Assembly (NCBI GenBank): GCA_963725665.1
Contig: CAVRZA010000003.1
Location: 1-64,000, forward strand
Reading direction: 5' to 3'
Length of the DNA stretch: 64,000 bases
Source: an uncultured Actinomycetes bacterium
GTDB lineage: Bacteria; Actinomycetota; Thermoleophilia; UBA2241
This document shows positions 506 through 64,000 of the stretch, piece by piece (position 1 is the first letter of the stretch; the number at the start of each line of letters is the position of its first letter). The position numbers and the translations under genes were made by a program. The notes below the pieces were generated by a model. That model was given only the letters and a program-made list of their open reading frames with translations, did no database searches and had not been told where the DNA came from.

Positions 506-1075
506 GGTGTCCTCCCACTGGTCGCGTCGCGGGACGCAACGGCGCTCCGCAGGCATGGTCGTCGTCTTGGAAGGAGGCTACGCGGCTGTTCCGCTGCGGG
601 CGTCGCCCCAGCGGGGTCAATGAGGCGGTGCGACGGGGGCATCCTTCGCGGCCGCCGCACCCCGCAAGGGGCGGACGGCGTACCCCTGAAGTGGACGGTA
701 GTGTGCACGCCTTCAACGCAGCTGCCCCCTCCTTCCCGAGTACGGTCAAGTAGAAGGCTATGCACCCGTGCGCGGAGACGCGCCCGCCGAAAGGACGGGC
801 GTGAGACTCCCAGACTGGACAGTCTTTGACCTGGCTGGCCGGCCAGGTTGGGGCAGCAAGATGACACAGGCCGCGGCCAAGATCTCCGTGGAGTCCAGAA
901 AGACCCCGGGGACAGTCCGAAGTACGTGGTCGGCTCGAGGAGCCCGCTCGGCTCACCAAGGAGGCGAGGGAACAACCCTCGCGCAAGAACGAGCCTTCAC
1001 CGGTACAGGACCTCGGCCGTTCCTGTCCATCTGTTCTCCTAAGGGTGTAGAATACGTGAACGGAGGCGAACCCGT

Positions 1076-1313
1076 GGTTCGCGTCCCCGACGAGATGTCG
1101 GGATTCTGTCGGCGAGACGCCGGCGATCCCCCTGAGCAGGGGGTACCTGCTCCGCGACGAGAGGTCGCGCGTCAACCTTCAAGTAGCGGGTAGCTGCTTC
1201 CGGCGAGATGCCGGGATCGTGCCGGCGGGATGCCGGGCCTACCCCCGTGAGCACGGGCCACTTGCTCCCCGACGAGATGTCGGGCCTCGACCGCCGCAGT
1301 GCAGCGAGATGCT
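1076..1313 (+). ncRNA. Candidate structured RNA: two tandem ~100-nt multi-hairpin units with GAGAN loops
   Basis: Units 1076-1177 and 1186-1295 have the same hairpin order, compensatory stem changes and G-U pairs on the + strand. An extra short GAGAT hairpin lies at 1301-1313. Confidence 0.6.
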
Positions 1314-1488
1314 CTCTCTGGCGGTGTCCTTGCGAAGCCTCTGTTGGCGTCGCCGTGCCTTCTAGGCACGGTCGCCAAAGGCCTCGCGGTCACCGTACCA
1401 GCACGGAGTGTGAGGGCGATGAGCAGTCGGCGGATTACCCACAGACGTGAGCTCTCCCTTGTGCTGGTCAGTTTGAGGAGACAGCGTC

Positions 1489-2817
1489 ATGTCCGGGAAG
1501 CCCGACAATCCCAAGACCACGCGCCAGGCACCGGTCGCGCCGGCGCGCACAATAACTCCAAGTAAACCGTCCTCTCAAGCCGCCTCTCTTGCGGTGCAGT
1601 GGTGGCCCATCGAGCGACCCATTCCCTACGAGAGCAATCCGCGCATCGTCCCGCAGCGGGCGATTGAGAAGGTAGCCGCCTCGCTGGCAGAGTATGGCTG
1701 GCGGCAGCCCATCGTCGTCGACAAGCACGGCGTCATCATCGTCGGCCACACGCGCCTGCTGGCGGCCAAGAAGCTGGGCTTGACCCGTGTGCCGGTGCAC
1801 ATTGCCGGCGACCTCTCAGCCGAACAGGCGCGTGCCTATCGCCTGACCGACAACCGCAGCGGCGAGGAGACGCGCTGGGACCTCGAGCTGTTGCCGGCAG
1901 AGATCGCCGGCCTGGCCGAGAGCGGCTATGAGCTCGACGCCCTGGGCTTCGACTCAGGCGAGCTTGCCAAGCTGCAGCTGGCAGCGCTGCCGATCTCCGT
2001 CGACGCGGAGGTGGTGCCCGAGCCGCCGGCGGAGCCCGTCACTAGGCCCGGCGACCTCTGGCTCCTGGGCGAGCATCGCCTGCTCTGTGGTGATGCGACG
2101 AAGGTCGACGACGTCGATCGCTTGATGGGCGGCAAGAGGGCTGCCTTGATGGCCACCGACCCGCCCTACCTCGTTAACTACGACGGCGGTAACCACCCAC
2201 AGACCTGGGCCAACGGCGGCAAGGCGGGCAAGGATCCCACCCGCCACTGGGACGCCTACACCGACCACGAGCACTCGGTGGCCTTCTATGAGGGTTACCT
2301 TGCGGTCGCCCTCGAGCATGCTCTGGTCGAGCGTCCGGTGGTCTATCAATGGTTTGGCGCCATGCGGGCGCCGGTGGTGTTTGAAGCCTGGGAGCGGGTG
2401 GGTCTGCTGGCTCACCAGACCCTGATCTGGGTCAAGAGCCGCACCGTCCTTACCCACTCGCACTACATGTGGGACTACGAGCCCTGCCTCTACGGCTGGA
2501 TCTGCGGCCGGCAGCCCAAGAGAAAGCCACCCGCCGAGGCGCGCGCGGTGTGGGCCATTGACTCCGTCGTCGAGGACGGCGCTGGCGGTGTGCATCCGAC
2601 GATGAAGCCCCTGGAGTGCTTCCGGCGCCCGATCGCCTACCACACGGCTCCCGGTGAGCTCATCTATGAGCCCTTCGCCGGCTCGGGCACGGCGCTGATA
2701 GCCGCGCAGCAGCTGGGGCGCGTCTGCTACGCCCTCGAGCTCTCGCCGGCCTTCTGCGATGTCATCGTCACAAGGTGGGAGCGCTTAACGGGACGGAAGG
2801 CGGTGCGTCATGGCTAG
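1489..2817 (+). CDS. ParB-like N-terminal domain fused to an amino (N4/N6) DNA methyltransferase, phage type
   Basis: ParB-like GWRQPIVVD..IIVGHTRLLAA; methyltransferase motifs TDPPY, HPTMKP and EPFAGSGT. Confidence 0.92.
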   Translation: MSGKPDNPKTTRQAPVAPARTITPSKPSSQAASLAVQWWPIERPIPYESNPRIVPQRAIEKVAASLAEYGWRQPIVVDKHGVIIVGHTRLLAAKKLGLTRVPVHIAGDLSAEQARAYRLTDNRSGEETRWDLELLPAEIAGLAESGYELDALGFDSGELAKLQLAALPISVDAEVVPEPPAEPVTRPGDLWLLGEHRLLCGDATKVDDVDRLMGGKRAALMATDPPYLVNYDGGNHPQTWANGGKAGKDPTRHWDAYTDHEHSVAFYEGYLAVALEHALVERPVVYQWFGAMRAPVVFEAWERVGLLAHQTLIWVKSRTVLTHSHYMWDYEPCLYGWICGRQPKRKPPAEARAVWAIDSVVEDGAGGVHPTMKPLECFRRPIAYHTAPGELIYEPFAGSGTALIAAQQLGRVCYALELSPAFCDVIVTRWERLTGRKAVRHG

Positions 2818-3253
2818 GTCTTCTGCCGCCGAGGTGTCGCGCCGCGTCGATGCCGTCTATGACCTGCTTCTGCAGGGTGTCTCGCGGCGCGGCATTAAGC
2901 AGTACGCCGCCCAGCAGGGCTGGGCGGTCTCGCCGCGGCAGATCGCTACGTACCTCTCACGCGCGCGCGAAGAGCTCGCCGCCCAGGCGCAGCGCGAGCG
3001 CGCCGTGGAGTTGGGTAAGGCCCTCGAGCAGCTGGACCTGCTCTTCATGAAAGCTCTTGCGGCCGAGGATCGCGGCGGGGCGCTGACTGTCCTTCGCGAG
3101 CGCGTCTCCCTGCTCGGGCTCACACCCGCCGCGCGTCTGGAGCTGGCTGGGCCCGGCGGCGTCTCGGGGCCTAGCATGGCGGAGCGCTCGGAGCGTTTTC
3201 TGGCCGAGTTCGAGCGTCAGGCGCAGGAGACGAGTGGGGAGGAGGGGTCATGA
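2810..3253 (+). CDS. Putative terminase small subunit (N-terminal HTH)
   Basis: 147 aa HTH-like protein overlapping the methyltransferase upstream and TerL downstream; call rests on position and size. Confidence 0.65.
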   Translation: MARSSAAEVSRRVDAVYDLLLQGVSRRGIKQYAAQQGWAVSPRQIATYLSRAREELAAQAQRERAVELGKALEQLDLLFMKALAAEDRGGALTVLRERVSLLGLTPAARLELAGPGGVSGPSMAERSERFLAEFERQAQETSGEEGS

Positions 3254-4587
3254 ACTACTCTCCCTTCGCTTCGTGAGCGTCTCCTGGCTCTGCCGCAAGA
3301 GGTCAGGCAGGCCTTTCTGCTCAGTCTGCCGCCGGCGGTGCTTGCCGAGGCGCAGTACGACTGGCCCTTCTGGGCGCGACCCGATCAGCTGGAGCCGCCG
3401 GGGCCCTGGCGCACGTGGCTCATGCGCTCGCGGCCGCGGCGCCGGCAAGACCCGCGCCGGGGCGGAGTGGGTGCGCGCCAAGGCCGAGGGTGGCATCTAC
3501 AGCGTCTGCACCTGGTGGGGCGCACCGAGGCCGACGTGCGCGACACCATGGTCGAGGGTCCCTCGGGGCTCTTGACCATCAGCCCACCGCAGAGTCGGCC
3601 ACGCTACCGGCCGCGCCTGCGCCGCCTGGAGTGGCCCAACGGCGCTCTGGCCCTGCTCTACTCGGCCGAGGAACCGGACCGTCTGCGCGGCCCGCAGTGC
3701 GAGGCCGCCTGGCTCGATGAGCTGGCCTCCTGGACCTACCCGGAGGCCTACCACAACCTCATGTTCGGGCTGCGCCTGGGGGTCGATCCCCGCTGTGTGG
3801 TGACCTCCACGCCGCGGCCGACCAAGCTCATCCGCGAGCTGATCGCGCGCGCAACGACGGTGCAGACGCAGTCCTCGACCTACGCCAACCGCCACAACCT
3901 GGCGCCGGCCTTCCTAGAGCAGATCCTCTCCACCTACGACGGCACGCGCCTGGGACGGCAGGAGATCTACGGCGAGATCCTCGACGACGTGCCGGGGGCC
4001 CTCTGGAGCCACAGCGCATCGACGAGCTGCGCGTGGTGCGAGCCGCCCGAGCTTGCAGCGCCTGGTGGTGGCGGTCGATCCTGCCGTGACAAGCGGGCGA
4101 GGAGGCCGATGAGACGGGCATCATCGTCGTCGGGCGCAGTGAGGATAAGCAGGCCTACGTGCTGGCCGACCTCTCGGGACGCTACCCGCCGACGGTGTGG
4201 GCCAAGAAGGTCGCCGATGCCTTTCGCCGCCACAAGGCCGATGCCGTCATCGCCGAGGTCAACCAGGGCGGTGAGCTGGTCAAGGACATGCTGCGCCAGA
4301 CCGACGCAAGCCTGCGGGTCAAGACGGTGCACGCCACACGGGGCAAGTATCAGCGCGCCGAACCGGTGGCGGGCTTCTATGAGCAGGGGCGCGTGCACCA
4401 CGTGGGCACCCATCCCGCCCTCGAGGATCAGATGTGTGCCTTTACCACCGACATGGACCGCGCGCGCGACGGTTCGCCCGACCGCGTCGATGCCCTGGTC
4501 TGGGGGCTCACCGAGCTGCTGGTCACCTACCGCGGACCACAAAGGGCCCACGTGATCGACGGCTTCACCGGCAGGCGCATTACCTGA
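3250..4587 (+). pseudogene. Terminase large subunit (Terminase_6 type), broken by several frameshifts (possibly sequencing errors)
   Basis: WPFWARPDQ, RGRGAGKTRAGAEWV (Walker A), RLRGPQ..AWLDELA, nuclease EVNQGG and SPDRVDALVW, spread over three frames. Confidence 0.9.
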
Positions 4588-5020: not shown

Positions 5021-6290
5021 TCTATGAAAAGCTGTCCCCATGCAACTCCGCATCCCCGCTTCACGGAGCGCGGATCTGCCGGCGAGTGGTGCTCATCTCT
5101 CTATCGCCTCCTTGGGCGGGAGGATCAGGTCGGGTGGGAGCTTACCGCGGTGGCCCATCTCCAACAGGGGTCGTCTAGGCGACCAGAGGTTTTGCGGGGC
5201 CTGCCGGGGCAAACGGTTGGTTGCGGGTGAGCATGTACCAGATCGCCTCGGCCAGCTTGCGGGCGATCTCCACGTGGGCGACCTTGGCGCCGCGCTGGCG
5301 GCCGAGGCGCTGCTTGGTGTGCGTGTAGTGAGCGGCGTAGGCGGGGTGGCGACAGGCGTGCACGGAGGCCTCGATCAAGGCCCAGCGCAGGTAGGCGGGA
5401 CCGTTCTTAGCCAGCGAGCCGCGGTAGTCCTTGGCGCCCGACTGGTAGACGCGGGGGCAGAGGCCGCTGTAGCCGCAGAGCTTCTTGGGGGAAGCGAAGC
5501 GCTCGATCTCGCCGATCTCTGAGGCGATCGTGTAGCTCAAGACCCAGCCGATCCCGGGGGCCGTCATGAGCAAGGGCACGTAGGGATGGTCGGCGCCCAG
5601 GGTGCGCAGCTCGGCCTCGCAGTCAGAGATCTCCTCCTCGAGCTCCTCGATGAGCCGCAGGCTGGCCTGTGTGGTCGCAAGCCAGGACTCGGGCAGCTTA
5701 AGGCGCGCCAGCAAGCGGCGCCCCGACTCACCGAAGAGGTCGGCGACGGGACAGGGGCACCCAAAGGCAAACAGTGTGGCGTGGATGCGGTTCTTTAAGG
5801 CTCCGCGGTGATGCACGAGGTGCAGGCGAAAGCGCGCCCGCTCGCGCTCGGCGCGCACCCCCGGGGAGGGCAGCCAGATGGCCGGCACCAGATCGAGGCG
5901 GGCAAGCTCGGCGAGCACCCAGGCGTCGATGCGGTCGGTCTTGCAGGCCAGGGGCGCCATGCCCTTGACCCTTTGGGCGTCGGCGACTGCGACCTGCCAG
6001 CCGTAGAGTTCGAGGGTGTCGTGGATGAAGCGGGCGCCGTTCATCGACTCGATGGCCGCCCGCACGGGCTCGCCGTACACGGCGAGACGCGTCGCCAGGC
6101 CGCGCAGGCCGTCGCCGTCGGGCGGCGAGGCTGTGACCGCCACCCTCTGGCCGTGCTCATCGAGCAGGCAGACATCGAGACGCTTCCTTGACAGGTCCAA
6201 ACCGGCGTACAACATCTCTGGGGCCTCCTTGGTTGCTCCGTCGGTGACACGCGGAGCTTGCCACCCATGGGGGCCTTTTTCATGGCATTC
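5021..6290 (-). mobile_element. IS110-family (IS1111-type) insertion sequence
   Basis: TC dinucleotide at both junctions, subterminal inverted repeats ATGAAAA/TTTTCAT, ~150-nt non-coding end downstream of the transposase. Confidence 0.85.
5175..6215 (-). CDS. IS110 family transposase (DEDD plus Transposase_20)
   Basis: MLYAGLDLS, AIES, KTDRIDA, PGIG, YSGLCP..QSG, LRWAL; AAGGAGG RBS before ATG 6215. Confidence 0.95.
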   Translation of the reverse strand: MLYAGLDLSRKRLDVCLLDEHGQRVAVTASPPDGDGLRGLATRLAVYGEPVRAAIESMNGARFIHDTLELYGWQVAVADAQRVKGMAPLACKTDRIDAWVLAELARLDLVPAIWLPSPGVRAERERARFRLHLVHHRGALKNRIHATLFAFGCPCPVADLFGESGRRLLARLKLPESWLATTQASLRLIEELEEEISDCEAELRTLGADHPYVPLLMTAPGIGWVLSYTIASEIGEIERFASPKKLCGYSGLCPRVYQSGAKDYRGSLAKNGPAYLRWALIEASVHACRHPAYAAHYTHTKQRLGRQRGAKVAHVEIARKLAEAIWYMLTRNQPFAPAGPAKPLVA

Positions 6291-6490
6291 CATCACCGGT
6301 TCGACTCCGGTCGCCGCCTCCAAAGATCTCGCTGCACACCGCCAGTCCCGAGTCCCGGATTCTCTCTCCAGTTGGCGCGATTGCCGACGCATCGGCCGAC
6401 AACATCGTCGGCAAGTGGCTGGTATCTGGCCGCAAAGACCAGGTCTGTGAGGCTAACGGTCAAGCCCGCGCACCAAGGACTATGCTTCAG

Positions 6491-6580: not shown

Positions 6581-6756
6581 CGGGACGGGCTCCCCGCCCC
6601 GAGGCAACGGTTCTCCCCCGGCTCCTCATGAGCCCTTAACAATGAGGTTGCACAATGCCTTGGACTGCACGGCTGAAGGAGGGAAAAGATGGTGAGCGTA
6701 CCGTGTCTGCTGAGGCCTGTGCGGAGCCTACGGACTCAGACTCAGGGAGCTGCCTA

Positions 6757-8814
6757 GTGTCGACCAAGACGCGCACCATCGTCGTCACCGGCGACGTGTC
6801 CATCGACTGGCTGCTGCTGTCGTCGCCCAGTGGCGGCCGCGGCGCGGTCGACATCATCTGGATGTGGGGCGGCGCCTACCCCTGTCGCGCCCTTGTGAGC
6901 AGCGGCGGCGCGGCCGCACACGCGGACATCCTGCGCAGTGCGGTGGCAGCGGCGGGTCGAGAAGATGTGAAGATCGTCGGCCCTGAGGTGCCCGCCGAGG
7001 CCCTTTCCTCGCCCCTGCATGCGGCCTTTACGCATACCTTTGCTCGTCTCGAGCCGTTTCGCCGACAGGCGGGGGTCGCCGGCGCCGAGGTCTGGCGGAT
7101 CGCCGAGTTCATGGGCTCCGATCCCGCGCGCCAGGCGCCGGCTGCCATTGCCGAAGCGCCCCCTGGCATCGTCGACACCCTGATGATCGTCGATCACGCC
7201 ATGGGTTACCGCGACGGCGTCCCCGGGCTTGCCGAGTTGCTCGCCGCCGGCCCGCGCACCATAGTCTGGCAGACCGGCGCGCCGCTGGCCGGCTCACCAC
7301 TCGCCGACCTTTTGCTCGACGAGCACGCCGGCACGCTCACCGTCATCACCTCGTCCGACGAGCTGCGCAAGGCGGGCGCACAGGTCGGCTACGCGCTCTC
7401 CTGGGAACAGCTCACCGAGGAGATCCTGGCTGCCGTCAAGGCCCACCCGATGTCGCAAGCACGCCGCGTGATCGTCATCGTGGGGGCCGTCGGGGCGGTG
7501 ATCGTCGAGCGCGACGGGAAGGACATCCTCGTCTTTGATCCGCGCTCCCAGGAGAGCGACTGGAGCAAGCGCTACCCGGGCGTCGGCGCCGCCTACGGAC
7601 GCTGCATCGACGCGGCGGTGGTGCTCGATGTGGCGGGCGGCGGCGCGGCCGCGCCGGTCGAGTCGCTCAAGCGTGGCCTCGCCGCCGCTCGCGCCGCGCA
7701 CATCGCCGGCTTCCGCATCGAGCCTGACCGCGGCGTGGCTGCCAACCCCTTCCCGCTGCATGAGGTCGCCCAGGCGCTGCTGCGCGACAGCGGGGAGTTC
7801 GCGAGCGTCGTCTACCGGCCGGCCGCGGGAGCCTCGATCCTCGCTCAAACCTACGGCGAGGCGGTCCTGGCCGAGGTCGCGCTCACAACCGCGGTGAACG
7901 GCAGCGTCAGCCTGCCCCACGGCATCCCCGTGGAGAACGTCGGGGCCTGGTCCTCGGTGGACAGGACCGAGATCGAGAACCTGCGCAGCGTGCGCAACAT
8001 CATGGAGGAGTACGTTCGCCGGGGGCCAGGCGGAGGTCATGTGCGGCGACCCCTCGCGATCGCCGTCTTCGGTCCGCCGGGGGCCGGCAAGACCTTTGCC
8101 GTGAGACAGCTGGCGAGGGTCCTTCTGCCGGGCGGGCTAAGGACGCTCGAGTTCGACCTCTCGCAGCTGCACTCCGAGGCCGACCTCCGTTCTGCCCTGC
8201 ACGAAGTGCGCGACGTCGCCCTGGAGGGCGAGCTGCCGCTGGTCTTGTGGGACGAGTTCGACTCGCCGTTGAGCGGCGAACCGTTGGGCTGGCTGCGCCA
8301 CTTCCTTGCCCCCATGGAGGATGGGCGCTTCCGCGAAGGAACGAGCTTCCACCCCGTTGGGCCGGCCATCTTCGTCTTCGTGGGCGGCACCGCCGCGCGC
8401 TTCGACGAGTTCGTGGCCAGCGCCGACGAACGCGCCGCGAAGGTCGCCAAGAAGCCCGACTTCATGAGCCGTTTGCGTGGCTACGTGAACGTGATGGGCC
8501 CCAACCGACAGAACGCCGACGACGTCGCCTGGCCGCTGAGGCGGGCCCTGCTTCTGCGCTCGCTCGTCGCGCAGCGGGCGCCGCAGATGATGCGTGCCGA
8601 GAGGGACGCCGCGCGTCTGGACATCGACGAGGGTGTGTTGCGCGCCTTCCTGCTGATCGGAGAGTACATCCACGGAGCCCGCTCGCTGGAGGCCATCCTC
8701 GAGATGAGCTCGCTGAGCGGCAAGCCGCGCTTCGAGCGGTCGAGCTTGCCGGCGCACCAGCAGTTGGCCGTGCACGTGGACGCGAGCGCGTTCCTGAAGC
8801 TCGTGCGCGCCTGA
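6757..8814 (+). CDS. P-loop/AAA-type ATPase with a large uncharacterised N-terminal region
   Basis: GPPGAGKT Walker A, LVLWDEFD Walker B, FVFVGGT and PDFMSRLRG; start could be further upstream (6655). Confidence 0.75.
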   Translation: MSTKTRTIVVTGDVSIDWLLLSSPSGGRGAVDIIWMWGGAYPCRALVSSGGAAAHADILRSAVAAAGREDVKIVGPEVPAEALSSPLHAAFTHTFARLEPFRRQAGVAGAEVWRIAEFMGSDPARQAPAAIAEAPPGIVDTLMIVDHAMGYRDGVPGLAELLAAGPRTIVWQTGAPLAGSPLADLLLDEHAGTLTVITSSDELRKAGAQVGYALSWEQLTEEILAAVKAHPMSQARRVIVIVGAVGAVIVERDGKDILVFDPRSQESDWSKRYPGVGAAYGRCIDAAVVLDVAGGGAAAPVESLKRGLAAARAAHIAGFRIEPDRGVAANPFPLHEVAQALLRDSGEFASVVYRPAAGASILAQTYGEAVLAEVALTTAVNGSVSLPHGIPVENVGAWSSVDRTEIENLRSVRNIMEEYVRRGPGGGHVRRPLAIAVFGPPGAGKTFAVRQLARVLLPGGLRTLEFDLSQLHSEADLRSALHEVRDVALEGELPLVLWDEFDSPLSGEPLGWLRHFLAPMEDGRFREGTSFHPVGPAIFVFVGGTAARFDEFVASADERAAKVAKKPDFMSRLRGYVNVMGPNRQNADDVAWPLRRALLLRSLVAQRAPQMMRAERDAARLDIDEGVLRAFLLIGEYIHGARSLEAILEMSSLSGKPRFERSSLPAHQQLAVHVDASAFLKLVRA

Positions 8815-10996: not shown

Positions 10997-11707
10997 TGGA
11001 CGAGTGGGTAACGACCTACAATCAGGAGCGCCCCCACCAGAGCCTGGGCATGAGCCCGCCGGCCAAGCGCTTCGCCCTGACGGCGCCTTCGTCCGCGCCG
11101 CCGCTCAGGCTGGCGCAGGAGCTGCAGGAGCCGCCTGCGCAGAGCGACCTGCAGAGGACGCCACAGGTCACGCGCCGCGTGAGCCGAGAGGGCAGGATCA
11201 GCCTGGCTGGCTTCGTCTACCACGTGGGCACCTGGCTTGGCGGTGAGACGGTCGCGGTGACGATGCGCGATGGACTGCTCGAGATCTGCCATCGCGGCGT
11301 GCTCATCGCCTGCCACGCTCGCCGCCATCCCCTAGAGGCAGAACCGAGGGTCTGGCAGCAGCGCCCTCGCGCCCAGCGACTACGGCCGCAGACCGCAGGC
11401 CGGCCGGTGACCCGCAAGGTGGGTTCGGGTGGGGAGTCTGCTTCGCCGGTGCCGGCTACCGTGTGGGCAACCGCTACCGCGGCGAGCAGGTCGAGGTGCG
11501 CGTGGTCGGAGACACGGTGCAGATCTCGCAGAAGGGAAAGCTCATCCGCACGCACGCCGCGCGCCACGACCGCGAGAAAGAGCACGGCGCCTTCGCCAAT
11601 CCCGCTGGCCGCCCCTCGAAAATCAACAGCTACGTCAGACAGAAGCCTGCGGGAGGTGTAACACAGCTACCGGAGCCACTCTGTAACGCGGGTGGTGGAA
11701 CTTGAGG
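10997..11707 (+). pseudogene. IS481-family transposase C-terminal remnant with right end
   Basis: WVTTYNQERPHQSLGM.PP..RF, two VTR(R/K)V..G.I Mu-like C-terminal repeats (frameshifted), and repeated TGTAAC end motifs after the stop. Confidence 0.75.
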
Positions 11708-14886: not shown

Positions 14887-16182
14887 CTACACGGCGGAAG
14901 ACGAGTCGCTGCCTCCCAGCGGCCTCACGCGCGAGAAGCGCTCGACGCGCAGCGGCCACAGATCGAGGGTCGGGCGTTGACCGGTGACGATCTGGGAGAC
15001 GAGCTTGCCGCTTATCGGGCCGAACTTCAGGCCGTTCGTGTTGTGGCCCGTGGCGAGGACCAGGTTCTCGTGCATCGGCGAGCGCCCCACGATGGGGATG
15101 CCGTCGGGCGTGAGCGGGCGAAGGCCACACCACATCGACAGCGGATCTGTGTGCATCTCTTCCAGGAAGTCCGCCGCCCCCCTGCGGATGCCCTCGAGGC
15201 GCTTGTCCAGCAGCCTGTGGTTGATGCCGGAGAGCTCGAGCGTACCTGCCAGGCGCAGCTCATCCCCGTAGGGGGTTGCGCAGACGCGTGCCTCGCTGAG
15301 ATACAGGGGCAGGTTCCCGGGGACTCCCTCCGGCCTTCTCACCGTGATGCTGTAGCCCTTGCCGGCCTGCAGTGGGATCCTCAGGCCCAGGCGGCCGGCC
15401 AGTTGCCGCGACCAGACGCCGGCCGCCAGCACGATCGTCTGGGCCTCGAACGTGCCGCGAGTGGTGTGCACGGCGCAGATCCGGCGGCCGAGGGTGGCGA
15501 AGTCGAGGACCTCGGTCGAGGTCATGAGGGCGCCGCCGCTCTCGCCAGCGAGGCGCACGAGCTCGCGCGTGAAAGCCGCCGGCTCCACCTTGGCGTCCTC
15601 GGCCACAAACGTGCCGCCCACGACGCCCGACGCCAGGGCGGGGACTCGCTCCCGCAGCTCAGCGACGTCGACGACCTCGGTCTCGATGCCGAAGGACCTT
15701 AGAGGCGCGATGTCGTCCACTGCCGCGCCGAAGGCCCCGTCCGTCCTATACAGGGTGAGGAGACCGCTAGGCTCCCAGCCGCCCTTCATGGTGCCGGCCT
15801 GGTCGAGCTCGATGAAGAGCCTTAGCCCTTCGCAGCCGAGGTTGCGCAACACGGGCATTCCCTTTCGCATGGGTCCTTGCCTCGAGGCGGCCACGAAGCG
15901 CAGCAGCCACAGAGCGAGGGCCGCGCTGAGGCGCGGCTTGACGTAGAAGGGGCTGGAGCTGTGGAGCAGCCACTTGAGGCCTTGGCCGACAACGCCGGGA
16001 GAAGGAAGCGGGTAGATGAGGCTCGGGGCGACCAGGCCGGCGTTCGCGTGCGTGCTCCCCGACACGGGGCAGACGACCTCCGCACGCTCGACGAGAACGA
16101 CCTCTCTGCCTGCTTGCGAGAGGTAGTAGGCGCAGAAGGCTCCGATGATGCCGCCACCGATGACAAGGACGTCGACCTTCAC
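14887..16182 (-). CDS. FAD-dependent D-amino acid dehydrogenase/oxidase (DadA-like)
   Basis: VLVIGGGIIG, ANAG, GKGYS, WCGLRPLTPDG, TGH. Confidence 0.9.
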   Translation of the reverse strand: MKVDVLVIGGGIIGAFCAYYLSQAGREVVLVERAEVVCPVSGSTHANAGLVAPSLIYPLPSPGVVGQGLKWLLHSSSPFYVKPRLSAALALWLLRFVAASRQGPMRKGMPVLRNLGCEGLRLFIELDQAGTMKGGWEPSGLLTLYRTDGAFGAAVDDIAPLRSFGIETEVVDVAELRERVPALASGVVGGTFVAEDAKVEPAAFTRELVRLAGESGGALMTSTEVLDFATLGRRICAVHTTRGTFEAQTIVLAAGVWSRQLAGRLGLRIPLQAGKGYSITVRRPEGVPGNLPLYLSEARVCATPYGDELRLAGTLELSGINHRLLDKRLEGIRRGAADFLEEMHTDPLSMWCGLRPLTPDGIPIVGRSPMHENLVLATGHNTNGLKFGPISGKLVSQIVTGQRPTLDLWPLRVERFSRVRPLGGSDSSSAV

Positions 16183-30738: not shown

Positions 30739-30985
30739 GCCCATCTCTGGCGAGCGGCTGCAGCCGCTGGGCCGCCAGCAGGCGCGTGTGGCCGACGATG
30801 ATGACGCCCTCGGCGTCGACCACGATCGGCTGGCGGAAGCCGTACTCCTTGATGGAGGCCGCCACCTTGTCGACGGCGCTCTGAGGACAGACGCGTGCGT
30901 TACGCGCGTAGGGGATGGGGCGGTCGGTCGGCCACCACTCGACCGTGAGCCTCTCACGGCCCTTGCCTGTTTGTGCCTTGATCAC
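30719..30985 (-). pseudogene. ParB-like N-terminus of a second ParB-methyltransferase, truncated
   Basis: WWPTDRPIPYARNAR..KVAASIKEYGFRQPIVVD..IIVGHTRLLAA aligns with the N-terminus of 1489-2817. Confidence 0.85.
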
Positions 30986-39524: not shown

Positions 39525-40997
39525 ATGCAGAACGAGGATCACGATTCCGCCGCCGGCCGTAGGGATAATGAAGGCCTTCTTGGCGGCAGGCCGGTGAGTC
39601 GTCGGGAGTTCCTCAAGATAGCGGGCGCGACTGGCGCGGTCATCGGTGTGGGTGCGGGACTGGGCGGATTCCTTGGCGCCTGCGGCGGCACGTCCTCATC
39701 CTCATCTACGTCCTCCGCTGCACCTATCAAATTCGGAATCATGGGGCCAATGGGAGATCCGACCGGCCTCAACGTGCTCAGGCCAGCCGAGATGATGTTC
39801 AAGACGATCAACGCTGCCGGTGGGATCCTGGGTCATCCCTGCGAGATCGTAGGACCTCTCGACGATCACAATGAGACAGCTCAGGCCATCACGGCCTACG
39901 AGTCCCTGATAAGCAAGAAATGTAATGTGATTCTTGGTGCCTCAATTGATGATGTCGAGTCGGCGCTTCTTGGTAGGATAGCGCAGCAGCCTGATGTTCT
40001 GTATTTGTCTCAGTTTGCTTCAACTCAGGCCTTCATGGTCAACGTTCATAAGGACTACGAGCGGTTCAAGACATATTTTATGTACACGCCAACTGATCAA
40101 GGGCTGTACTTCTGTGTCCAGAATCCTGCCGTGGAGTTGAAGGACAAGTTTGGCTGGAAGAGAGCCTTCATGCTGCGCGAGGATATGGTCTGGACTGAGG
40201 GTGTGGAGGGATTCTTCAAGGACGAGGCGCCAAAGGCAGGGTTCGAAATTGCTGGCATAGCTGTGGTGCCTGTGGACGTGGAAGACCTGACTCCGTATTT
40301 CAGGCAGGCACAGCAGGCAAATGCCCAAGTCATCATGACTTTCATATCGGTGTTCGGAGAGAAGCTTGCGAATCAGGCTTGGTCGCAGAAGTTCCCGATC
40401 GCGATGCTCGGGCACAACGGCATTCTGAACGACTACGGCTACTGGGAGAGAAGTAAGGGAGCCTGGGGCCCGATGGCCACCACGTCGACGTGGGGGAGTC
40501 TGGAGAAACAGACCGCGGTGTGGCGCGACTTCGTCACGGAGTGGTATACGACGTACACGGATGACCCAAGGACGCCGATGTGGCTCGGTGAATGCACGTG
40601 GCGGGCGATCAACTCGTACAAGGAGGCCTGCGAGAGGGCGAAGACCATAGAGACGCAGGCGGTCATCAAGGAGCTCGAGAAGACGTATTATCCCGACGCA
40701 CCGGTCGCCGGTGGGTTCTACGGACCTGAAGAGGGCGATTGGCCACACGCTTGGTGCTCGCCTATCGACAAGGCGCAGGTCTACACGGCGAATCCGCCAC
40801 GTGGAAAGGGGCTGTGGGAGAGTTCGCCTTGGAGTCCTATGACCCAGTGGGAGCCTCAGAACATTGCGCCGTCTGCGACCTTCGTGCTGCCTGGGGAGCC
40901 CGCAGACTACGGCCGGCTAGTCACCGTATATCCACAGAAGCTGGCTGGCGGTGAGTTCCAGCAGCCCCCGTTCTTCCCCGGTTCACCCAACGCGTGA
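39525..40997 (+). CDS. ABC transporter substrate-binding protein (Liv/HAAT type, Tat lipoprotein)
   Basis: SRREFLK Tat motif, LGAC lipobox, IKFG..GP..INAAGGILG. Confidence 0.88.
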   Translation: MQNEDHDSAAGRRDNEGLLGGRPVSRREFLKIAGATGAVIGVGAGLGGFLGACGGTSSSSSTSSAAPIKFGIMGPMGDPTGLNVLRPAEMMFKTINAAGGILGHPCEIVGPLDDHNETAQAITAYESLISKKCNVILGASIDDVESALLGRIAQQPDVLYLSQFASTQAFMVNVHKDYERFKTYFMYTPTDQGLYFCVQNPAVELKDKFGWKRAFMLREDMVWTEGVEGFFKDEAPKAGFEIAGIAVVPVDVEDLTPYFRQAQQANAQVIMTFISVFGEKLANQAWSQKFPIAMLGHNGILNDYGYWERSKGAWGPMATTSTWGSLEKQTAVWRDFVTEWYTTYTDDPRTPMWLGECTWRAINSYKEACERAKTIETQAVIKELEKTYYPDAPVAGGFYGPEEGDWPHAWCSPIDKAQVYTANPPRGKGLWESSPWSPMTQWEPQNIAPSATFVLPGEPADYGRLVTVYPQKLAGGEFQQPPFFPGSPNA

Positions 40998-41168
40998 CGC
41001 TGCGCGACGCGCAGGCAAGCAACAGACAGATCTTTCAGGACGAACGTGAGTGCACTGAGGGGCACGCCTCGAGCCTGCCCCTCAGTGCGCGAACGGTCGC
41101 GGGCTCCCGGGTTGCGAGCCTCTGAACGAGACCATATGGCTTGGGATTAGCCAGGGGAGGCTGGGTAC

Positions 41169-42023
41169 GTGGACAATCTGGTGTACGTTCTGGTGTACGG
41201 CGTCCTATTCGCGTCCCTCTACGGGATCATGACGGTCGGCTTTGCTCTGATCTGCGGTCTGGGGGGCTTCTACGACATCACTCTGCCAGCGTATTTCATG
41301 GTAGGCGGCTTTGCGATCGTGAAGCTCAGCCCCTATCTCTCACAGTGGTCGTTTCTTCCGGTGGCGCTCGGCCTGGGGGCGCTCTGCGTAGGCCACTACT
41401 ACGTGTTCATCAGGCCGCAGCGCGAGAACCCCTACAGGGTGTTCTTCGCAACCATTCTGTTGGCGCTCGGTGTCGAGAGCCTGATGGCCATGATCTTCAC
41501 ATATGGCTACACATTCAAGGTAACGCCGCTGATCGCTGGTGACGTGCACCTCCTGGGCGTTAGCGTGCAGCGCGAGCTCATTCTTGGCGGTGCCATTGGC
41601 TGGCTTACCCTGTTCGGGCTTCTCTACCTCACCAGGCACAGCAATATTGGCCGAGCCGTCATTGCGATTCCGCAGAGTGCGCGCGGTAGTCAGGTTATCG
41701 GTCTTGATGTGGTCCGCATCCAGATGCTCGTTTATTTCGTCGGAGGAGTTCTCCTAGGATTAGGGTCATACTTCTATGGCGGCTACATTGGTGTCAGTGT
41801 ACATATGTGGTCTTATCCTCTCGTGATTATGTTCACCATTGCTACTCTCGGAGGCCTCGGCAGTATTAGTGGCATGATGTACGCTACTCTTTTTATCGGA
41901 ATACTTGAGGTTGGCGTGGTCACATTTATCGACCCACGAATTCGTGCCTTTGTTCTGCTGGGAGTAGCCGTCGCTATTCTGATATACCGTCCACGAGGAA
42001 TATCGGGAACCCGCATTGGTTGA
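41169..42023 (+). CDS. Liv-type ABC permease (LivH-like)
   Basis: Multiple TM segments; LGGLGSISG; YRPRGI. Confidence 0.88.
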   Translation: MDNLVYVLVYGVLFASLYGIMTVGFALICGLGGFYDITLPAYFMVGGFAIVKLSPYLSQWSFLPVALGLGALCVGHYYVFIRPQRENPYRVFFATILLALGVESLMAMIFTYGYTFKVTPLIAGDVHLLGVSVQRELILGGAIGWLTLFGLLYLTRHSNIGRAVIAIPQSARGSQVIGLDVVRIQMLVYFVGGVLLGLGSYFYGGYIGVSVHMWSYPLVIMFTIATLGGLGSISGMMYATLFIGILEVGVVTFIDPRIRAFVLLGVAVAILIYRPRGISGTRIG

Positions 42024-42055
42024 ACCGCTGGTGCCGAGATTAGAGAGAGGATGCC

Positions 42056-43024
42056 GTGGCTAGAGATCTCTACAAGTGGGTAGCGACGCTTGCGGTTCTG
42101 ATTGCTGTGGCCCTGATGATGCAGGGGCAGCTCTCTTTTGTGATTACCGCCAGCCTGTTCGCCATGTTCGCGATGAGCTGGTGTTTCTTTACGAGTTTCA
42201 GCGGTTTCCTCAACCTTGGCCATGTGATCTTCATCGGCACGGCCGGGTATACGAGCGCGATTCTCAACTATCACCTTGGGTGGCCGATGTGGCTGAGCAT
42301 GGTGGTGGGGGTCGGCGTGGGAACCGGAGTAGGGTGGTTGTACCTGTACCCCATTCACCGGCGCATATTCGGTCTCAGTTTCGAGATGGTCAGTTTTCTT
42401 TCGATCATCGCCATTTCGAATCTGGTCGTGTCTGGTTACGCGAGGCCCCTGACGGGTGGCGATATTGGGCTTTCTCCGCTCGACGGTCTGTTCTCGACCG
42501 TCTGGTTGGCGGTTCTTCTGGCGGCGCTTCTGTGTGGTTTTGGCTTCTGGTATTCGCTGTATCTCCGCTCTGACTCGGGTAAGGTCGTCGACTTCGCACG
42601 GGAGAACCAAGGAATCGTGAAATCGGCCGGGGCGGACCCTCACCGCTACACCGGCAGACTGCTTCTGCTGAGTGGCCTGCTGGGAAGTGTCGGAGGAGTC
42701 CTGTACGTCCACTACTCCGGGGCGGCGGTAGTCTCAAACACGTTTGCCCTGGCCTTCATGATCCGCATCATCGTCATGGCCATCATCGGCGGCCGATTCA
42801 GCCTTCGCGGGGCGATCGTCGGTGCGTACGTAGTCGTGTTCTTGGGCATGGAACTCATGCCGTACGTCGATGCCTTCGTTCAGTTTCTTGTTATCTACGC
42901 GATCGGCTTCGTCATCTACTTTGCATGGCCGACGGGGTTGGTTGGGATGCTGAGTTGGGTCTGGAACAGGTTGCCGTGGGCGGCAGGTCAGCCTGGGGCA
43001 GAGAAGACCTCAGCGGCCGCTTAG
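42056..43024 (+). CDS. Liv-type ABC permease (LivM-like)
   Basis: SGFLNLGH..F.G, LTGGDIG, IIGG, PTGLVG. Confidence 0.88.
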   Translation: MARDLYKWVATLAVLIAVALMMQGQLSFVITASLFAMFAMSWCFFTSFSGFLNLGHVIFIGTAGYTSAILNYHLGWPMWLSMVVGVGVGTGVGWLYLYPIHRRIFGLSFEMVSFLSIIAISNLVVSGYARPLTGGDIGLSPLDGLFSTVWLAVLLAALLCGFGFWYSLYLRSDSGKVVDFARENQGIVKSAGADPHRYTGRLLLLSGLLGSVGGVLYVHYSGAAVVSNTFALAFMIRIIVMAIIGGRFSLRGAIVGAYVVVFLGMELMPYVDAFVQFLVIYAIGFVIYFAWPTGLVGMLSWVWNRLPWAAGQPGAEKTSAAA

Positions 43025-43044
43025 TGCGAGGCGAAGGACTGACT

Positions 43045-43743
43045 ATGCCTATCCTAGAGCTGGAGAATGTAGATAAGGTGTTCCCGGGAGTAAAGGCGCT
43101 CAATCGCGTGAACATGAGCGTCGAACAGGGCGAAATAAGGGGGCTCATCGGGCCCAACGGTTCTGGCAAATCGACGATGATTTCGACTGTGATGGGAGTG
43201 TACAGGCCCGATGGTGGCACGATCAGGTTCAAAGGCAGTGATCTTGGTAGTAAGCCTATTTGGGATCGTGTGAAGCTGGGCATAAGCGCGACAAATCAAA
43301 CGGCCCAGTACGTGGCAGATTTGTCAATTCGCCGACACGTTGAGTTGGGCGTGATGGTGAATGGCTTTCCTAAGCAGGACGTTGAACGGGTGGCAGAGCT
43401 CGTTGACCTGACGGACTGGGTCGACGAGCTGCCAAGTGCCCTGTCCGCCCTCGGTGCGAAGAAGCTTGAGATAGGAAAGGCTCTATCGACAAGGCCTTCG
43501 TTGCTGATGCTCGACGAGTGTTTCGCCGGCCTTTCCTTCGAGGAAGGCGAGGAGATGGTGAGCATCATTAGGCGGGTCGTTTCTGAGTACGATGTCACCG
43601 TCCTCGTGGTCGATCACAACCTCGGCTTGGTCGAAGAGATCGCTCATGAGACAACGGTGATCGACCGGGGCAACATCATCGCCGAGGGCACGTTTCAGGA
43701 AATCGTCGACAATCCCGTTGTCGTTGAAGCGTACATGGGGTGA
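43045..43743 (+). CDS. Liv-type ABC ATPase (LivG-like)
   Basis: GPNGSGKST, LLMLDE, V.EAYMG. Confidence 0.92.
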   Translation: MPILELENVDKVFPGVKALNRVNMSVEQGEIRGLIGPNGSGKSTMISTVMGVYRPDGGTIRFKGSDLGSKPIWDRVKLGISATNQTAQYVADLSIRRHVELGVMVNGFPKQDVERVAELVDLTDWVDELPSALSALGAKKLEIGKALSTRPSLLMLDECFAGLSFEEGEEMVSIIRRVVSEYDVTVLVVDHNLGLVEEIAHETTVIDRGNIIAEGTFQEIVDNPVVVEAYMG

Positions 43744-43749
43744 TTCTGG

Positions 43750-44454
43750 ATGAGCCTGCTGGAGGTTAGCGACCTCAGGGTGAAGTACGGCAACGTTGAG
43801 GCATTGAAGGGCATAAGCCTGACGATAGGTGATGATGAGAAGTGTGTCGCTCTTGTGGGCCCCAATGGAGCGGGCAAGAGCACTTTCGTCAATGCAGTGA
43901 CTGGTTTGATGAAATGGGAAGGCACAGTCTCATACAAAGGAAGCAGTATCGCCGGGTTATCTAACAGACAGCTTGTTCAGGCAGGAGTGGTCCAGTGCCC
44001 CGAGCGGCGGTATCTGTTCGACTTCATGACGGTCAAAGACAATCTCTTGCTGGGTACGTATAACGCCGGCAAGGACAGTGACGTATCGCTTGAAAGCGTG
44101 TTCGAGCTGTTTCCCGTGCTGAAGGAGAGAGTGAAGCAGCAGGCTGGGACGTTGAGTGGCGGAGAGGCGCAAATGCTGGCCATTGGGCGGTCGCTCTTGG
44201 CGAATCCGAGCCTCTTGCTCTTGGACGAGCCAACGCTGGGTTTGGCGCCGATCCTCAGAAAGAAGCTTTCGGAGGCGTTTCAGGAGATCTACAAGCGGGG
44301 CGTGGTCATTTGCCTGGTGGAGCAGAACGTGAAGCTGAGTTTCGACGTGGCGGAGCGGGTCTACGTGATACGCGAAGGGCACATCGTCATGGAGGGCTCT
44401 GCCGCCGAGCTTAGCCACGACAAGGAGATCCACCGGACGTTCCTCGGCGTGTGA
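43750..44454 (+). CDS. Liv-type ABC ATPase (LivF-like)
   Basis: GPNGAGKST, AGTLSGGE, LDEPTLGLAP, VEQN. Confidence 0.93.
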   Translation: MSLLEVSDLRVKYGNVEALKGISLTIGDDEKCVALVGPNGAGKSTFVNAVTGLMKWEGTVSYKGSSIAGLSNRQLVQAGVVQCPERRYLFDFMTVKDNLLLGTYNAGKDSDVSLESVFELFPVLKERVKQQAGTLSGGEAQMLAIGRSLLANPSLLLLDEPTLGLAPILRKKLSEAFQEIYKRGVVICLVEQNVKLSFDVAERVYVIREGHIVMEGSAAELSHDKEIHRTFLGV

Positions 44455-57333: not shown

Positions 57334-57425
57334 GACGTCGTGAGCGCAGCAGACCGCTCCTACCGACGTCGTGAGCGCAGCAGACCGCTCCTACCGACGT
57401 TGCGAGCGCAGCAGACCGCTCCTAC
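57334..57425. repeat. 31-bp tandem repeat, about three copies (VNTR)
   Basis: GACGTCGTGAGCGCAGCAGACCGCTCCTACC; no spacers; internal GAGCG/CGCTC hairpin. Confidence 0.92.
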
Positions 57426-63741: not shown

Positions 63742-63820
63742 TTCGGCGGCCGAGCTATCTTGCCGTCGGGCAAGACCTCTAGCTTTGCGTCCCTGCCTCA
63801 CAGCAGGTTTGCCCTTTCGT
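63742..63820 (-). promoter_or_regulatory. Cyclic di-GMP-I (GEMM-I) riboswitch
   Basis: Minus strand reads GGGCAAA-CCTGCT-GTGA-GGCAGG-GACGCAAAGCTAGAGGTCT...GATAGCTCGGCCGCCG, with the hallmark GGCAAA, GNRA hairpin and GGACGCAAAG. Confidence 0.88.
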
Positions 63821-64000
63821 TGGGAGAAGTATCGACTGCGCGGCGCGACAAGATTAGACGAACGTTCTACATGTGTAGCCGGTGCGGCGACGTATCCAGC
63901 GCAAGAGGCGTCCGGAGGGCCGACGCCCTGTCAAGGGGCCAAGAACATGGGATTCAGCTACAGGAAACGTACTCTACGCAGGCTTTACACTGAATGGAGT

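Follow-up and report, generated by a model that had tools for sequence, protein, structure and literature searches.

What is the row of small hairpins that stands ahead of a phage-type DNA methylase gene at the beginning of a Thermoleophilia contig, and does it act as RNA? We analyzed a 64,000-nt stretch of DNA (the window, whose numbering is used for all positions), which is the start of contig C3 (CAVRZA010000003.1) in the genome of an uncultured Actinomycetota bacterium (GCA_963725665.1; 12 contigs, 3.73 Mb, completeness 97.5%). The array at 1086-1315 consists of two head-to-tail modules of ~113-115 nt each, and an earlier note on this DNA had described it as a tandem, covarying multi-hairpin RNA motif upstream of a methylase-terminase operon. 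The element is unrecognised and structured, and probably RNA. Our leading reading, held tentatively and at somewhat below even confidence, is that the array forms a structured 5′ leader, or a non-coding RNA embedded in a leader, of a plus-strand transcript of methylase, small open reading frame (ORF) and terminase, and would serve as a multivalent hairpin platform.

Layout of the array

The region 1040-1490 was inspected letter by letter. Each module contains three hairpins with a GRGAN loop, one with a GAGC loop and one fifth hairpin. A repeat search returned two families of direct repeats with start-to-start distances of 115 and 113 nt (80 and 76% identity, respectively), and a MAFFT alignment of the two units gave a mean column identity of 87% with one 2-nt indel. 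The hairpins listed in the earlier note, the TAGAAT hexamer at 1048 and the long 3′ hairpin are all present, the latter being placed here at 1337-1382; the unit itself was redrawn, as a module comprises five hairpins and not four. The features are as follows.

1048-1053, plus strand: TAGAAT, a −10-like hexamer in a locally AT-richer stretch (sequence reading)
1062-1086, plus strand: hp0, a 5′ hairpin of 10 pairs with one mismatch (−16.3 kcal/mol on the plus strand, −13.7 on the minus strand)
1086-1199, plus strand: module 1, with hp1a, hp2a, hp3a (versus an alternative hairpin at 1134-1152), hp4a and the link hairpin
1086-1102, plus strand: hp1a, CCCGAC-GAGAT-GTCGGG
1107-1125, plus strand: hp2a, GAGAC loop
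1128-1143, plus strand: hp3a, GAGC loop, in competition with the alternative hairpin at 1134-1152 (GGGUA loop)
1153-1169, plus strand: hp4a, GAGAG loop
1181-1199, plus strand: link hairpin, the fifth of module 1, 7 pairs, GGGUA loop
1199-1315, plus strand: module 2, with hp1b, hp2b, hp3b (versus an alternative hairpin at 1249-1267), hp4b and a degenerate fifth hairpin
1198-1216, plus strand: hp1b, GAGAU loop
1222-1236, plus strand: hp2b, GGGAU loop
1244-1257, plus strand: hp3b, GAGC loop, in competition with the alternative hairpin at 1249-1267
1268-1284, plus strand: hp4b, GAGAU loop
1303-1313, plus strand: degenerate fifth hairpin of module 2, a 3-bp GAGAU core within a longer helix at 1290-1325
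1337-1382, plus strand: strong imperfect hairpin 3′ of the modules, −29.8 kcal/mol, with no U-tract after it
1475-1480, plus strand: Shine-Dalgarno-like GAGGAG, 8 nt ahead of the ATG at 1489 (sequence reading)

The array thus precedes, in sense orientation, an intact gene whose ribosome-binding site is good, and the untranslated leader predicted ahead of the methylase amounts to 430 nt. If TAGAAT serves as a promoter, a start there would put the 5′ end of the transcript at ~1060, just ahead of hp0. The hairpin at 1337-1382, about 100 nt from the ribosome-binding site, is a possible pause, terminator or processing site.

Pairing, loops and strand

The earlier note's description of compensatory stems with persistent loops holds in the two-copy alignment, where neither unit has a non-standard pair among its 22 stem pairs. 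Three pairs are changed on both sides (A-U/G-C, C-G/G-C, and G-C/C-G) and two on one side, both of them C-G/U-G. When the 3′ partners were slid by 1-3 columns as a control, only 24-50% of cells paired. The covariation evidence is limited to two paralogous copies, and the conservation of pairing between them is suggestive and no proof. A similar relation is seen between the alternative hairpin at 1134-1152 and the link hairpin at 1181-1199, which have the loop GGGUA in common and differ at two pairs by double compensatory changes and at one by C-G/U-G.

In the seven GRGAN loops G1, G3, and A4 are invariant, position 2 is A or G, and position 5 is U, C, or G. Read as letters, this variation follows the constraints of a GNRA loop with one added base. 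The loop letters fit either GNRA plus one base (GRGAN, seven loops) or GNR-N-A (GGGUA, two loops). Among the solved structures treated in the source cited here are GNRA folds in which an additional base precedes the closing pair or a base is looped out, and it is these bases that contact proteins (PMC12550061).

The assignment of a strand leans to plus and is not settled. Owing to G-U pairs, nine of 14 elements are more stable on the plus strand and one on the minus strand, as the earlier note had said of U-G pairs; for the link hairpin the predicted energies are −8.7 kcal/mol (plus) vs. −3.7 kcal/mol (minus). The fold z-score of 1060-1326 is −2.47 on the plus strand (1/200 shuffles) and −2.11 on the minus strand (7/200).

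Competing hairpins at the GAGC loop

GAGCA and UGCUC are identical in both copies. In module 1 the alternative hairpin (1134-1152; 7 bp, GGGUA loop) is predicted at −13.0 kcal/mol vs. −10.0 kcal/mol for the GAGC hairpin, and in module 2 the corresponding values are −6.6 and −6.3 kcal/mol. The complementarity of GAGC and GCTC, which the earlier note had taken for a pseudoknot or switch, is present, and in these fold predictions it is better read as a pair of competing hairpins rather than a pseudoknot. Pairing of the GAGC loop with GCUC in an H-type pseudoknot appears sterically unlikely because the 4-nt loop would be fully paired and no connecting bases would be left. The one compensatory change in hp3 favors hp3 and introduces a bulge into the module 2 alternative, so that hp3 and the alternative are both partly supported.

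Chance, coding and assembly

The hairpin consensus occurs four times in the window vs. 0.10 expected, and none of 100 shuffles reached four. The loop as such is not enriched: across the 3.73-Mb genome 65 GAGAT-loop hairpins were counted vs. a mean of 73 per pentaloop. The array is the sole place in the genome where at least four GRGAN or GAGC hairpins fall within 120 nt. A dispersed repeat of the REP or MITE type was considered and rejected, since BLAST of 1050-1400 against the own genome returned the stretch itself and other matches only at E-values of at least 0.175. The own-genome BLAST, the covariance model described below and the cluster scan all return the array alone, and the REP-like, genome-wide repeat that the earlier note had allowed for was not found. 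Tandem Repeats Finder reported no repeat, the units being too diverged or too few for it. A k-mer scan of the 12 contigs found no CRISPR-like array (and one 4-copy tandem repeat on contig C6), which disposes of a CRISPR-repeat mimic and means that there is no host CRISPR repeat for comparison.

The array is non-coding. The coding signal at third codon positions (GC3) is absent from ~560 to ~1600, and the spacings of 113 and 115 nt together with the 2-nt indel break any reading frame; a repeat encoding protein is ruled out on these grounds. The duplication is not an assembly artifact, because both modules are bridged by short contigs that cover 905-1055 and 1059-1456 with 0-1 differences and come from four public DNA runs, all of the same study. 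Since these contigs match the window save for one letter in one contig, they hold no usable population variation.

Search for relatives

At gathering thresholds Rfam 15 matched the whole window only at 63742-63823 (c-di-GMP-I), leaving the array unmatched. A permissive scan of 850-1550 returned three matches with E-values of at least 3.8, the best being Guanidine-III with 12.2 bits vs. a cut-off of 36. The array is in this sense unrecognised, as had been proposed, and a literature search, which was not exhaustive, found no description of such an array.

A covariance model built from the two units (R1) found two matches in the own genome, namely its own sources, and none in 88 genomes of the family. 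The single, marginal match among 150 genomes of the class (33.8 bits) was rejected, as it lies in long ORFs, lacks the first loop and contains non-standard pairs. The one BLAST match in 60 relatives was 34 nt long, within a gene and due to chance. Phage and plasmid records searched with blastn returned nothing, and blastn and tblastx of 556-1489 against the relative loci returned nothing significant.

Pattern searches were equally empty of second arrays. In viral contigs a three-loop pattern hit 67 loci with no arrays (best R1 E-value 0.043), a strict four-element pattern hit none, and a pattern for the second half hit two loci, both by chance. In metagenome contigs the strict pattern hit six loci, none of which scored at the site or looked hairpin-like by eye. 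A loose pattern matched in 88 of 401 class genomes, including the own genome; the strings listed had no complementary arms by eye and were not scored. A loop-agnostic search for clusters of same-loop hairpins recovers the array itself; in 23 loci with relatives of the methylase it found only trivial three-hairpin clusters, none array-like, and in 80 loci with relatives of the terminase one low-complexity CGCG cluster.

The array is therefore an orphan known from one genome. As a family the “motif” of the earlier note could not be upheld, as no second locus appeared in any collection searched. As for the linkage to ParB-methyltransferase and terminase genes, which it had named as a check, no array is present at the 23 methylase-relative or the 80 terminase-relative loci.

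Genomic context

The genes and stretches around the array are listed below.

710-1047, no strand assigned: lineage-specific non-coding DNA, with no GC3 signal and no Pfam match for overlapping ORFs
1489-2817, plus strand: intact N6/N4 DNA methyltransferase with a ParB-N domain, 442 aa (Pfam PF01555 and PF02195; PHROG 498, E-value 3e-114)
2810-3253, plus strand: 147-aa ORF, with tblastn matches right behind the methylase in seven relative loci
3269-4563, plus strand: large terminase in three frames, with shifts near 4030-4044 and 4100 (Pfam Terminase_6N; tblastn)
5175-6392, minus strand: IS110-family transposase (DEDD_Tnp_IS110 and Transposase_20), directly after the terminase remnant

Relatives of the methylase, 54-67% identical, are found in Thermoleophilia metagenome-assembled genomes and viral contigs. 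The 147-aa ORF matches no Pfam or PHROG family and is small-terminase-like by position only. Tblastn with a 483-aa terminase from the relative locus L024 returned pieces in frames 3, 1, and 2, and the frameshifted gene is either a pseudogene or an assembly (indel) error. Of the “methylase-terminase operon” of the earlier note, the methylase is thus intact and the terminase gene carries at least two frameshifts. Further along, an ORF with a Mu-transposase C-terminal domain at 11050-11661 (plus strand), near an AAA ATPase at 6655-8814, suggests another mobile-element remnant in the island.

On the other side, the nearest relatives, which belong to a different genus of the family, match the window at 2-710 only, and in them the DNA past the equivalent of ~710 matches contig C2 of the present genome (160572-162185). 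We conclude that ~710 is a rearrangement or insertion boundary and, synteny ending there, that 710-1488 is lineage-specific. In the closest genus a gene for 223-236 aa lies directly upstream of the leader of an ABC transporter gene; its homolog here is on contig C2, and the phage remnant adjoins the ABC leader in its place. Since the genes flanking the array are divergent, the array is no terminator of an upstream gene.

A possible role as a leader RNA

The pairing that is kept between copies, the GNRA-type loops, the wobbles on the sense strand, the absence of coding and the position between a promoter-like site and a gene together suggest that a folded single strand has been under selection, the simplest case being a plus-strand RNA leader of the methylase operon. 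Transcription would start near 1060, downstream of TAGAAT, and the nascent RNA would fold co-transcriptionally into a protective 5′ hairpin followed by two modules of five local hairpins, with loops of the GNRA type, either GRGA followed by a variable base or GGGUA. The RNA would then reach the strong hairpin at 1337-1382, about 100 nt ahead of the ribosome-binding site. Repeated loops of like shape could offer a multivalent docking surface to a phage or host RNA-binding factor, or to RNA polymerase, and binding of the partner may govern transcription or mRNA survival through the 430-nt leader and the 1337-1382 hairpin into the genes, whether through processive antitermination, through protection against Rho or RNases, or through both. 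The isoenergetic hp3 and alternative hairpins in each module might act as a switch. Of the functions listed in the earlier note tandem aptamers are the least likely, since the units are strings of independent hairpins with no closing helix or junction. Because the array is in one genome only, its function stays a guess.

Several results speak against a plus-strand leader. A consensus scan called no sigma-70-type promoter on the plus strand, owing to the absence of a −35 match, and found 0 terminator-like sites in 500-1600, with no U-tract terminator. The public runs matching the stretch are DNA runs only (four, from one study), with no RNA run among them. The shuffle control of the pair statistics matched the observed values in 56 of 500 trials, a control which is weak with two sequences, and there is no independent covariation, because no homolog was found in any collection searched. 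Over 1050-1490 the fold z-score is better on the minus strand (−4.77 vs. −3.72 on the plus strand). The global minimum-energy fold favors long-range pairing between modules over some of the local hairpins; the modules are mutually complementary because each is palindrome-rich, and the local hairpins would therefore need co-transcriptional folding. R1 reached a best E-value of only 0.094 at the 23 methylase-relative loci and 0.072 at the 80 terminase-relative loci (634 kb). In several of the nine relatives examined a gene, and not a long leader, stands directly before the methylase; the genes seen there are an HNH endonuclease (L014 and L016), an integrase (L011) and small ORFs. A second ParB-domain methylase is represented in the window by a truncated 5′ fragment at 30761-30958 (minus strand; 67% identical to residues 31-96 of the first), ahead of which lies a short, AT-rich promoter region of divergent type that includes a palindrome-like stretch but no hairpin array. 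Finally, the operon may be dead, since the terminase is frameshifted.

Should the array function as RNA, it would represent a compact natural case of a tandem platform of GNRA-type hairpins controlling a phage packaging operon in Thermoleophilia, a class of Actinomycetota with almost no experimental genetics, and it would make a simple test bed for which loop and stem mutants are easily designed. For the present it is a curiosity of one genome, located in the decaying remnant of a prophage, and does not yet allow any wider question to be answered.

Alternative explanations

The alternative that survives best, unlikely in our view and yet to be taken seriously, assumes no present function. A short hairpin would have been amplified locally and the product duplicated once in tandem (113-115 nt), leaving a palindrome-rich minisatellite at the edge of a decaying prophage, and the paired changes would stem from DNA-level template switching in quasi-palindromes. 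Template switching within quasi-palindromes perfects inverted repeats without selection. In its favor, there is one locus in one genome with no relatives in any collection searched, and the site lies at a rearrangement breakpoint beside a frameshifted terminase and an IS110 element. The genome is GC-rich and stems of at least 5 pairs closing 5-nt loops are frequent in it (~1 per 100 nt on each strand), the z-scores of the folds are modest, and the pair statistics are based on two sequences. However, template switching leaves unexplained why positions 1, 3, and 4 are invariant in seven loops while 2 and 5 vary, and why one strand is consistently preferred by the wobbles. By hand count the unpaired columns also differ more between the copies (~17/55) than the stem columns do (8/44).

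Sites in duplex DNA are a rather doubtful explanation. Here an asymmetric core CGRGAYG, repeated ~22 bp apart, would be read by a terminase small subunit (pac- or cosB-like), by an integrase (arm-type sites at the end of a prophage) or by the ParB-domain methylase (operator- or centromere-like). The core does occur six to seven times in one orientation (1091, 1113, 1204, 1226, 1273, and 1305, with the variant CGAGAGG at 1158), the hairpin centers are ~20-25 bp apart, and the sites lie upstream of methylase, small ORF and terminase at the island edge. In the relative L011 an integrase stands directly upstream of the methylase, so that this side of the gene can be a prophage end. But a reader of duplex DNA would constrain the arms, whereas here the arms change in complementary pairs and the “spacer” is conserved; the GAGC and GGGUA hairpins resemble the others in shape only; and related phages with a homologous methylase or terminase lack the array. 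Nor is the spacing, with 17-32 bp between centers, phased with the helix. A ParB centromere or operator in particular was rejected, as the arms vary (CCGAC, CCGGC, GCGAC, CCCCU, and CCCGU) with complementary changes and the central 5 nt are conserved.

Hairpins of single-stranded DNA (ssDNA), used in replication, packaging or transfer of the former phage as priming or initiation signals or as recombinase sites read as folded strands, seem improbable. Paired stems with conserved loops would fit ssDNA as well as RNA, and GNRA-like folds occur in DNA too, a DNA GTAA tetraloop being among the examples cited in one source (PMC12550061). G-T wobbles, however, matter less in DNA, a Pfam scan found no replication initiator, relaxase or HUH/Rep-type gene nearby, and related phages have no counterpart of the array.

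It is a long shot, too, that the ten GNRA-type hairpins, as RNA or as folded ssDNA, recruit the ParB-domain methyltransferase, the small terminase-like protein, or both. Such a recruiting platform, were it real, would couple methylation or the initiation of packaging to one place in the phage genome and would be without a described relative.

Least probable of all is a minus-strand RNA or barrier with AUCUC loops, either antisense to the methylase leader or an insulator for the divergent ABC leader: the better minus-strand z-score over 1050-1490 (−4.77 vs. −3.72) and an ABC leader that begins at ~709 (minus strand) and has lost its upstream operon partner at the breakpoint are offset by nine of 14 elements being weaker on that strand (the link hairpin falls from −8.7 to −3.7 kcal/mol), by AUCUC-type loops having no known stable-loop signature, and by the absence of a minus-strand promoter in 1326-1489, the sole promoter-like match (1578-1549) being inside the methylase gene.

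Comparison with known systems

As a leader RNA the array invites comparison with the lambdoid boxB/nut sites. Both have short G+C-rich hairpins with 5-nt loops; those of boxB can fold in a GNRA-like manner with one base excluded, and the letters of the array loops would fit such a fold. Like boxB, which lies in the leader of phage operons upstream of terminators, the array would be part of a phage-operon leader. Where the source describes the looped-out base of boxB, that base contacts protein (PMC12550061). The differences are considerable. A nut site is one boxB plus boxA, whereas the two modules of the array comprise about ten hairpins; in P22 the extra base is inside the GNRA, and in most of the array loops it comes after it; and boxB has no sequence relation to the array. 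Nut depends on an N-like protein, and the remnant here consists of the methylase, the 147-aa ORF and the broken terminase, with no N-like gene among them. Intrinsic terminators are read through downstream of nut, whereas 500-1600 holds 0 terminator-like sites.

The second comparison is with put, EAR, canT and conAn2, which one source presents as RNA elements in the leaders of long mobile-element operons that make polymerase terminator-resistant (PMC11658703). Like the role proposed for the array, HK022 put, Bacillus subtilis EAR, Tn916 canT and pLS20 conAn2 are, in that source, structured 5′ leader RNAs acting in cis on polymerase (PMC11658703). They are single defined folds kept across relatives, whereas the array is a tandem of independent hairpins found once. 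An RNA of the put/EAR/canT type was rejected for want of an Rfam match and of any counterpart at the 23 methylase-relative or 80 terminase-relative loci. The array is a member of neither the boxB/N nor the put/EAR/canT/conAn2 group.

Sponge RNAs such as CsrB and RsmZ also present a row of small hairpins with the same loop motif. The array, by contrast, is predicted to be part of an mRNA leader, and no canonical terminator follows it. Sponges of the Csr/Rsm type carry GGA in most hairpin loops; here GGA is in one of ten module loops (GGGAU), and a sponge of this type was dismissed.

Type III toxin-antitoxin systems share the order of promoter (putative here), tandem RNA repeats, strong hairpin and protein gene in a phage-related element. 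The ToxI repeat unit is ~36 nt, vs. 113-115 nt in two copies here, and the candidate was discarded because the downstream gene is N6_N4_Mtase plus ParB_N and not an endoribonuclease of the ToxN/AbiQ kind.

Several short site copies near packaging or ParB genes are known from the R sites of lambda cosB, the pacL and pacR boxes of SPP1 and the ParB repeats of F sopC. The array resembles them in having multiple short sites upstream of packaging genes or beside a gene of the ParB family. Those sites are conserved as duplex sequence, whereas the array conserves pairing and not the sequence of the arms. Its position fits a pac or cosB site; the 80 large-terminase-relative and 23 methylase-relative loci have no such array.

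The ABC transporter leader and other observations in the window

On the minus strand at 473-709 lie the ~200-nt leader and the start codon of an ABC ATPase gene (ATG at 505-503, preceded by GGGAGG). Copies of this leader, 79-87% identical, recur in several family genomes and at more than one place per genome, and the leader has no Rfam match. RNAalifold on a 10-sequence alignment predicted 54 pairs, of which 10 show double changes that are compensatory, and in one predicted helix the 5′ CCGUCCAC is base-paired with GUGGGAGG, the Shine-Dalgarno region. The ABC leader is a candidate riboswitch-like element. Since it is conserved across genera and paralogous loci, shows compensatory changes and apparently sequesters the ribosome-binding site, it is a better candidate than the array for a new element of this sort and may matter more than the array.

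Elsewhere in the window the GC content falls to 0.56-0.57 at 40001-44000 (~0.67 elsewhere) with high GC skew, and this part may be foreign DNA. ARAGORN called a 102-nt tRNA-Glu(CTC) at 15504-15605 (plus strand), probably falsely, as the call is inside a strong FAD-oxidoreductase ORF (14887-16182, minus strand, 227 bits). At 57358-57420 (minus strand) three close copies of an AGCGG-loop hairpin with near-identical arms form a small tandem repeat. The c-di-GMP-I riboswitch aptamer at 63742-63823 is on the minus strand and scores 65.9 bits vs. a cut-off of 35.

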